Sequence record: MN882349.1
Strand: one strand, 5' to 3'
DNA length: 64,000 nucleotides
Source: Escherichia phage Ec_Makalu_003
The notes under the pieces: model-generated
What the model was told of the DNA's origin: nothing
The model's database searches: none
Seen by the model: the letters and a program-made list of their open reading frames with translations, nothing else
Program-made: the position numbers and the translations under genes
Shown here: positions 20,755-21,453 of the stretch, piece after piece
Layout of the letters: every line of letters begins with the position of its first letter
Numbering within the stretch: the first letter of the stretch is position 1

Positions 20755-21453
20755 CTAACCACGGGTATAGTGTTCCAGAACAACTGTCAGATGAATATAT
20801 TCTAATAGATCTTTCCAAAAGTCAACATCTGGTTCTTCCGGCATACCGTTCTTCTTTGCCTCTTCACGCGCGAGTTTAACACGCTCGTAGAGATCTTTCA
20901 ATTCTTCCCGCACATTATCAAAGGTTCTTTCTCCTAACTTACACGCTAAAATAGAAGAACGTCGCGCGAGCGGGAATTGTAGATCACCTGTCTGATAGAT
21001 TTCAAGTAGCTGATAACCAACACGCAGAGCATGAGAAAGATCTTTCCAGTTACTGAAATACTTTTCAGATTTGGCTACCTGTTTCTTGAGATAACCAGAC
21101 AAACCCCACATACCAACATGATAGAATTTATCGCGATGTGTTCGGATGTATTCCCATTCTCTGGAGGATTCGATCAACATGTTACTAGGCGCGTGCACCA
21201 TGTCAATAGCGCCGATATCGCCTTTACATGCCAGATTGATAAACCGTTTTAGACTGAACATATTAACGTCAATATCGTCTTTGGTGTTCTTAATACCCTG
21301 ACCGCTAGTGCTTTGGTCGTAGTGTTCTTTCATCGATCCTAAGATAATTTCTTTCGCCGTAGGAACAAAGATAACACGATAATCTTTATCGGAATTTTCA
21401 GTATCAAGGCCGTATAAGTGAGATCCGAAGACCATTTTAACCATTGTATGCAT
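20755..21453 (-). CDS. Pol-beta-superfamily nucleotidyltransferase-fold protein
   Basis: 232 aa; N-terminal 'FGSHLYGLDTENSDKDY' matches the G[SG]-x(9-13)-D-x-[DE] NTase signature; helical C-terminal half. Confidence 0.6.
   Translation of the reverse strand: MHTMVKMVFGSHLYGLDTENSDKDYRVIFVPTAKEIILGSMKEHYDQSTSGQGIKNTKDDIDVNMFSLKRFINLACKGDIGAIDMVHAPSNMLIESSREWEYIRTHRDKFYHVGMWGLSGYLKKQVAKSEKYFSNWKDLSHALRVGYQLLEIYQTGDLQFPLARRSSILACKLGERTFDNVREELKDLYERVKLAREEAKKNGMPEEPDVDFWKDLLEYIHLTVVLEHYTRG

Follow-up and report, generated by a model that had tools for sequence, protein, structure and literature searches.

Within the window, by which we mean the whole 64-kb stretch of DNA analysed, the gene studied here lies on the minus strand between vs.6 and regB. 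The features that define its surroundings are the following.

20755..21453, minus strand: nrdC.11 orthologue, RlaP family (PF10127), short form, 232 aa
21539..21955, minus strand: vs.6, a GrcA-like glycyl-radical protein (PF01228, E=1.6e-16), upstream neighbour of nrdC.11
21506..21530, minus strand: intrinsic terminator (10-bp stem, T-run) ending the vs.6 unit directly before nrdC.11
21484..21512, minus strand: candidate sigma-70-like promoter, TTGGCT-17-TG-TATGAT, a consensus match only
19900..20733, minus strand: three tandem paralogous small ORFs (PHROG 6261/15978), packed directly downstream of nrdC.11
20539-20733, 20297-20557 and 19900-20235, minus strand: the individual small ORFs, of 64, 86 and 111 aa
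19473..19937, minus strand: regB endoribonuclease (PF10715, E=3e-48)

A first-pass annotation of this DNA had described, without giving a strand, a 232-aa ORF with a Pol-beta motif (GS...DxD) at this position and a GrcA-like gene next door, and both were recovered, with the motif residues as it had quoted them (residues 9-25, FGSHLYGLDTENSDKDY). The ORF starts with ATG and is preceded by a GAGGG Shine-Dalgarno sequence about 9 nt upstream. It is genuine and not a chance reading frame, given its match to the Pfam RlaP model (E=1.4e-13), its match to phrog_388 'nucleotidyltransferase' in PHROGs (E=1e-78), the 3,219 homologous cluster representatives found in an exhaustive HMMER scan at E<=1e-3 and a dN/dS of 0.045 against the RB49 orthologue. 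That ratio, from 11 synonymous and 2 non-synonymous changes, indicates that nrdC.11 is under strong purifying selection.

Along the minus strand the order of genes is endolysin, vs.8, a small ORF, vs.6 (GrcA-like), nrdC.11, the three small paralogous ORFs, regB, vs.1, vs, tk.4 (macro domain) and tk. The terminator between vs.6 and nrdC.11 is stable (-17.6 kcal/mol, z=-4.1) and is annotated at the same place in the GEC-3S record, whilst the candidate promoter, which overlaps the tail of the terminator, lies 31 nt before the nrdC.11 start. Because the terminator separates the two genes and a promoter-like site lies on its tail, the adjacency of vs.6 and nrdC.11 is positional, not operonic. A functional tie between nrdC.11 and the GrcA-like gene was dropped on account of this terminator and of a homing endonuclease gene (NUMOD4/HNH, 3951-4547, plus strand) that in contig L007 parts the RlaP gene from its vs.6-like glycyl-radical neighbour. 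nrdC.11 is the first gene of a same-strand run in which the three small ORFs follow and regB is last, and GEC-3S annotates a second promoter within this run. The small paralogous ORFs have a common motif, ...C(S/A)HL(x)3(W)..., and the first two overlap by 19 nt. The Tk.4 orthologue (17959-18414, minus strand) contains a macro domain (PF01661, E=7.6e-7). Domains of this type act on ADP-ribose derivatives, among them compounds released when RNA 2'-phosphates are removed, and the protein could be part of an RNA-end or ADP-ribose theme. No tRNA genes were found in the 64-kb window, and a link of nrdC.11 to phage tRNA maturation was dropped for this reason.

The 3.7 kb around the ORF matched 58 phage records at 90% identity or more, all of them RB49-like Krischvirus (Straboviridae), and the best of the 58 was Escherichia phage Ec_Makalu_002 (99.2%). 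In the RefSeq records of RB49 and Phi1 the gene is named nrdC.11, with the product 'nucleotidyltransferase' and the note 'similar to T4 tk.-11', and a match of nrdC.11 orthologues to the COG3541 nucleotidyltransferase domain was described in a comparative paper of 2006 (PMC1524935). The gene is therefore the known nrdC.11, it belongs to a known family, RlaP, and its predicted role has already been published. Elsewhere in GenBank and UniRef, NrdC.11 homologues are widely misnamed 'thioredoxin', 'glutaredoxin' and even 'HNH homing endonuclease', labels that have apparently spread from the gene name.

The product had been presented in the first-pass annotation as a nucleotidyltransferase (NTase)-fold protein of unspecified substrate. 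It is indeed an NTase, although not an orphan: a profile HMM search assigned it to the Pfam family RlaP, 'RNA repair pathway DNA polymerase beta family' (PF10127), with a score of 51.5 bits, the gathering cut-off being 23 bits, with protein residues 7-191 aligned to model positions 24-198 of 249. The earlier interpretation was thus partly right and is now outdated. NCBIfam profiles gave no match to the 232-aa protein and PADLOC gave only one non-significant match. As a canonical comparison set we used eight RlaPs, all verified as PF10127 and including two Deinococcus RlaPs from a Hen1-Pnkp interval. Aligned to this set with hhalign, the profile of the phage clade matched at a probability of 100% (E=3.2e-41) over 231 columns covering both domains. 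Identity to canonical RlaPs is approximately 21-27%, a range that refers to the members aligned, PfRlaP and PaRlaP not being among them.

Conservation was examined in an alignment of 12 diverse members. G10, G15, D22, D24, K137 and R144 were invariant and S11, S21 and H141 nearly so, whilst an acidic residue occupied the D60 position in all 12 sequences and the D62 position in 11 of them. Loss of the catalytic Asp residues, which had been proposed as grounds for refuting an NTase, was not seen. Judged from the sequence, the Pol-beta signature of a G[GS] turn, a DxD and a third acidic residue on a neighbouring strand is present as G10-S11, D22, D24 and D60/D62. The helical domain of RlaPs with its K...H..R motif is also present (W136-K137...H141...R144), as is the terminal helix.

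What RlaPs do is described in a single unreviewed preprint of December 2025, in which the enzymes of P. fluorescens and P. aeruginosa (PfRlaP and PaRlaP) were characterised (bioRxiv 10.64898/2025.12.29.696909). Among E. coli macromolecules RNA was their sole substrate, DNA and protein not being used. They added 1-2 NMPs to an RNA 3'-OH from any NTP, and also from dATP, rejected 3'-phosphate ends and preferred Mn2+. They favoured the 5' half of a tRNA mimic with a break, and treatment of a tRNA lacking one anticodon-loop nucleotide with RlaP before ligation partly restored its aminoacylation. The same preprint placed T4 NrdC.11 in the RlaP family (SSN cluster 5) and reported a PfRlaP crystal structure composed of an NTase domain, a helical domain and a terminal helix.

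An AlphaFold2 model of the 232-aa protein, built on 30 homologues, was confident (pLDDT 91.9, pTM 0.87). It comprises an N-terminal alpha/beta NTase domain (residues 1 to ~112) and an all-helical C-terminal half, as the first-pass annotation had proposed, with helices at 116-131, 136-155, 165-172, 178-201 and 210-230. These divide into a helical domain (residues ~116-201) and a C-terminal helix (210-230), and the order of domains, compared by description, is that of the PfRlaP crystal structure. Neither the single protein nor an 11-sequence profile found anything meaningful among PDB sequences, the PDB copies searched evidently being without the PfRlaP structure. A structure-based search of the PDB with Foldseek did return NTase-type neighbours, namely ANT(4'), Hailong HalB, 3c18, AAD(9) and LinB (E ~4e-5 to 1e-3, TM ~0.4). 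These neighbours are generic and share the layout of an NTase plus a helical domain.

The protein could alternatively be an enzyme of nucleotide or small-molecule metabolism, an NTase acting on a metabolite, an antibiotic-like compound or a component of the nucleotide pool in the manner of ANT/KNT/LinB-type enzymes. We consider this improbable. ANT(4')/KNT, AAD(9) and LinB show no sequence-level kinship with the 232-aa protein, their likeness being one of fold at TM ~0.4 and 10-13% identity, and no match to the aminoglycoside nucleotidyltransferases (ANT/AAD) was found in Pfam, NCBIfam or PDB sequences. The characterised substrates also differ, RNA 3'-OH ends for RlaP as against antibiotic hydroxyls for these enzymes.

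A further alternative is a role in counter-defence, in which the protein would make or mimic an oligonucleotide or nucleotide immune signal, or disturb nucleotide-based immunity, for example by producing HalB-like oligo-dA that keeps a Hailong-type channel closed. HalB (PDB 9dbh/9dbj) is a Tyr-primed, processive, dATP-specific poly-dA synthase whose partner is the HalA membrane channel (PMC13434031), whereas RlaPs add no more than 1-2 nt to RNA. It is just 13% identical to the Krischvirus protein and was missed by both single-sequence and profile searches, and no partner of the HalA kind is present here. Neither a match to CD-NTase/cGAS-like synthase models with an effector partner, nor the pairing of a minimal NTase of ~100-150 aa with a HEPN toxin bearing an Rx4-6H motif that defines MNT-HEPN systems, was found, and the single PADLOC match was not significant. 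The window moreover already encodes a protein for signal degradation:

28465-28935, minus strand: gene 57B, Acb1 anti-CBASS 2H phosphodiesterase (PF23474, E=1.5e-51)

The earlier suggestion that the NTase might interfere with nucleotide-based immunity finds no support for nrdC.11, and we regard a counter-defence role as very improbable. Acb1 is the recognisable anti-CBASS factor of the window. Gene 57B is labelled 'RNA ligase' in the RB49 RefSeq record, which looks like a misannotation.

The Krischvirus protein differs from most of its close relatives in length. T4 NrdC.11 and its Straboviridae orthologues (PHROG 388) are also PF10127 members and have in common with it the invariant residues of GSHLYG, SDxD, KNTKDDID, DMxH and WKxxSHxxR. 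Most relatives in this T4-type clade are 302-344 aa long. By contrast, the 232-aa window protein and P0002 (234 aa, 56-57% identical, and encoded on contig L007 with synteny as in Krischvirus) are without ~100 internal residues, which form an alpha/beta module in the long proteins (residues ~131-240 of P0036). Map position differs too, the gene lying between vs.6 and regB in Krischvirus and in the nrdC-mobD interval in T4. Pseudomonas and other canonical RlaPs belong to the same Pfam family, have the same domain order and, like the Krischvirus protein, contain no internal module. Short forms match the Pfam RlaP model in one unbroken stretch and long forms only to approximately model position 142, which argues that the short architecture is the canonical RlaP one and that the T4-type proteins carry an inserted module.

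A neighbour-joining tree was built on the shared columns with five short forms included. The five were monophyletic in 0/500 bootstraps, and the window protein grouped with P0002 and a long form, P0121, in 454/500. As the short forms were never monophyletic, the tree implies that the clade's module disappeared on three or more separate occasions. It was retained in the T4-type proteins and in the operon-embedded bacterial members of the same clade, and the substrate preference of the short form may differ from that of the long form.

A module missing relative to the nearest long-form relatives might instead mark a decaying or reduced remnant with little or no activity. A truncated 94-aa allele, P0186, exists in databases, and the T4 nrdC.11-mobD.3 segment can be deleted in the laboratory (PMC9825161). 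Against decay, the dN/dS is that of a constrained gene, all catalytic and family residues are retained, the predicted structure is confident and compact, and canonical active RlaPs are likewise without the module. The short form has also been kept in the divergent P0002 with the same synteny, and nrdC.11 is found in 58/58 Krischvirus genomes. That the gene is a remnant is thus as doubtful as a role in counter-defence. P0186 itself is identical to the Krischvirus protein over its first ~70 residues and then frameshifted, which points to a natural pseudogene or to a faulty assembly.

The genomic context of the wider clade was studied in bacteria, using one genome per prokaryotic species, clustering the flanking ORFs and checking the clusters with Pfam. 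This yielded 57 bacterial or MAG loci with relatives 31-49% identical to the window protein. An RNA-repair gene (RtcB, Ro60, Pnkp/Hen1 or a Pnkp-Rnl1 fusion) lay within 5 kb in 13/57 loci, mostly on the same strand and in several cases 4-90 bp from the RlaP-like gene. Across the 57 loci, RtcB occurred in 8, a Ro60-like TROVE-vWA protein in 7 and Pnkp/Hen1 or kinase-phosphatase-Rnl1 fusions in 6. Because of these 13 loci, the link to RNA repair extends beyond the canonical RlaPs: in bacteria the T4-type clade has such a link of its own.

Several further arrangements were observed at these and other loci. On plasmid P2 of Deinococcus gobiensis (L069, 4737-6442), Hen1 and Pnkp flank two tandem RlaP paralogues of 304 and 264 aa, and an AbiEi/AbiEii toxin-antitoxin pair is directly downstream. 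In three alphaproteobacterial loci (L036, 6974-7507; L037, 6908-7525; L055, 5366-6004) the RlaP-like gene is directly adjoined or overlapped by a gene for HD_4, a RelA/SpoT-type HD domain, an association outside the classic set of RNA-repair partners. RlaP-like genes of Bacillus phage PBC6 (L008), two mycobacteriophages (L009 and L010) and a B. pumilus phage-plasmid (L070) lie near genes for RNR, flavodoxin, thioredoxin, NrdH, thyA, DHFR and tk. These RNR-type neighbours in unrelated phages may echo the nrdC-cluster location of the T4 gene, or perhaps reflect mere early-region composition. Beside the distant phage homologues of PBC6, Myrna, BobsGarage and Cosmo, no ligase or kinase was found, RNR, NrdH or lysis genes being nearby instead.

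The 64-kb window likewise contains no ligase or kinase genes. In RB49, pseT and rnlA are present but ~75 kb from nrdC.11, in a part of the genome that falls outside the window. Each of the 58 Krischvirus records contains all three genes, nrdC.11, rnlA and pseT, at 95% identity or more, and across T4-like phages the numbers of NrdC.11 and RnlA homologues per genus are nearly identical, co-occurrence here being a matter of genus-level counts and not of record-by-record pairing. This fits a shared pathway, but common descent within Straboviridae may be all that it reflects. Besides pseT, RB49 encodes a second, 158-aa 'polynucleotide kinase'-like gene (RB49p229) beside nrdB at 132333-132809 (35334-35810 of L005), also outside the window.

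The gene is best read as the Krischvirus orthologue of T4 nrdC.11, encoding a compact RlaP-family enzyme with predicted template-independent nucleotidyltransferase activity. By analogy we infer that this activity would be the same as that of the Pseudomonas RlaPs and that its natural substrate would be cleaved tRNA. Two metal ions would most likely be held by D22, D24 and D60/D62, with catalysis taking place in the cleft that separates the NTase domain from the helical domain bearing K137/H141/R144, and 1-2 NMPs from any NTP would be added to the free 3'-OH of a broken RNA. During infection, a host anticodon nuclease would leave 2',3'-cyclic-phosphate or 3'-phosphate and 5'-OH ends, which phage Pnkp (pseT) would convert to 3'-OH and 5'-phosphate. 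The RlaP enzyme would then refill the nucleotide trimmed from the 5' fragment, as after RloC-type excision of the wobble nucleotide, and Rnl1 (rnlA) would seal the break.

Krischvirus NrdC.11 is on balance probably such an RNA 3'-end nucleotide 'filler' that serves tRNA repair together with Pnkp and Rnl1. The reading draws on family membership, the catalytic and signature residues, the fold, purifying selection, co-occurrence with pseT and rnlA, and the repair neighbourhoods in bacteria. It also agrees with the chemistry of the pathway, since the 3'-OH and 5'-phosphate ends handled by Pnkp and Rnl1 suit the product of RlaP, whilst RtcB chemistry does not (bioRxiv 10.64898/2025.12.29.696909). 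That RlaP refills nucleotides cut out by 'smart' ribotoxins such as RloC was proposed by Burroughs and Aravind, as related in PMC7824862 and bioRxiv 10.64898/2025.12.29.696909. The proposal was extended to jumbo phages, where the distribution of RlaP mirrors that of RNA ligases (PMC7824862), which further supports tRNA repair. Several points weaken it. The biochemistry behind it comes from one preprint that has yet to be reviewed. An RNA ligase or other RNA-repair genes nearby are what gives RlaPs their name, and canonical RlaPs sit in repair operons, whereas Krischvirus nrdC.11 is not in an operon with, or even beside, a ligase or kinase, pseT and rnlA being so distant in RB49. Identity to canonical RlaPs is low, and RloC, the model nucleotide-excising nuclease, was reported to be absent from E. 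coli in a 2010 review (PMC3014915). The missing module means that substrate preference may differ, and laboratory dispensability of T4 nrdC.11 (PMC9825161) also counts against a repair role.

The run shared with regB suggests another use of the same chemistry. After a RegB cut and 3'-dephosphorylation by Pnkp, NrdC.11 could add 1-2 nt to the 3'-OH as a tailing enzyme for phage-directed RNA turnover, not repair, with consequences for early mRNA fragments or host RNAs, for instance through altered PNPase access. T4 Pnk does process RegB-cut mRNAs, and PNPase requires 3'-OH ends (PMC3014915). Characterised RlaPs also label rRNA-sized and full-length tRNA-sized species besides fragments and so are not strictly repair-specific (bioRxiv 10.64898/2025.12.29.696909). 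The run that nrdC.11 opens and regB closes is also tightly packed. The adjacency to regB is however confined to Krischvirus-type genomes, mobD or hypothetical genes lying alongside in other T-even relatives, and a second promoter is annotated within the run in GEC-3S. The partners of the bacterial relatives are ligases and Ro60, not decay nucleases, and 1-2 added nucleotides would be a weak decay signal. Tailing for turnover is thus unlikely, although it is the alternative we would place first after tRNA repair.

A bolder possibility joins these observations to the history of the module: the 'minimal' NrdC.11 may have evolved repeatedly, with shedding of the module retargeting the enzyme from the repair of tRNA breaks to another RNA task. 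Candidate tasks are untemplated 3'-tailing of RegB/Pnkp-processed transcripts, suggested by the presence of nrdC.11 in the same gene run as regB, or the synthesis of short oligonucleotides that blunt host defence, as HalB makes, suggested by HalB being the nearest solved structural neighbour. We hold such retargeting to be a long shot, slightly more so than a role in metabolism. If true, it would represent a phage-offensive use of an RNA-repair enzyme.

With tRNA repair as the preferred reading, only two details are new here: the module has been lost repeatedly and independently, and bacterial members of the T4-type clade occur in RNA-repair neighbourhoods. Both have practical value, as does the correction of the widespread 'thioredoxin'/'glutaredoxin' misannotation of NrdC.11 proteins. 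The occurrence of bacterial T4-type relatives in RtcB, Ro60 and Pnkp-Hen1 loci is a useful fact for testing the phage members, and the natural 232-aa versions offer a ready comparison for the contribution of the clade's extra module. The 2010 review of T4 RNA biology asked whether any phage is able to repair RloC-type excision of the wobble nucleotide (PMC3014915). RlaP/NrdC.11 is the published candidate answer to that question, and the 2025 preprint gives it biochemical plausibility.
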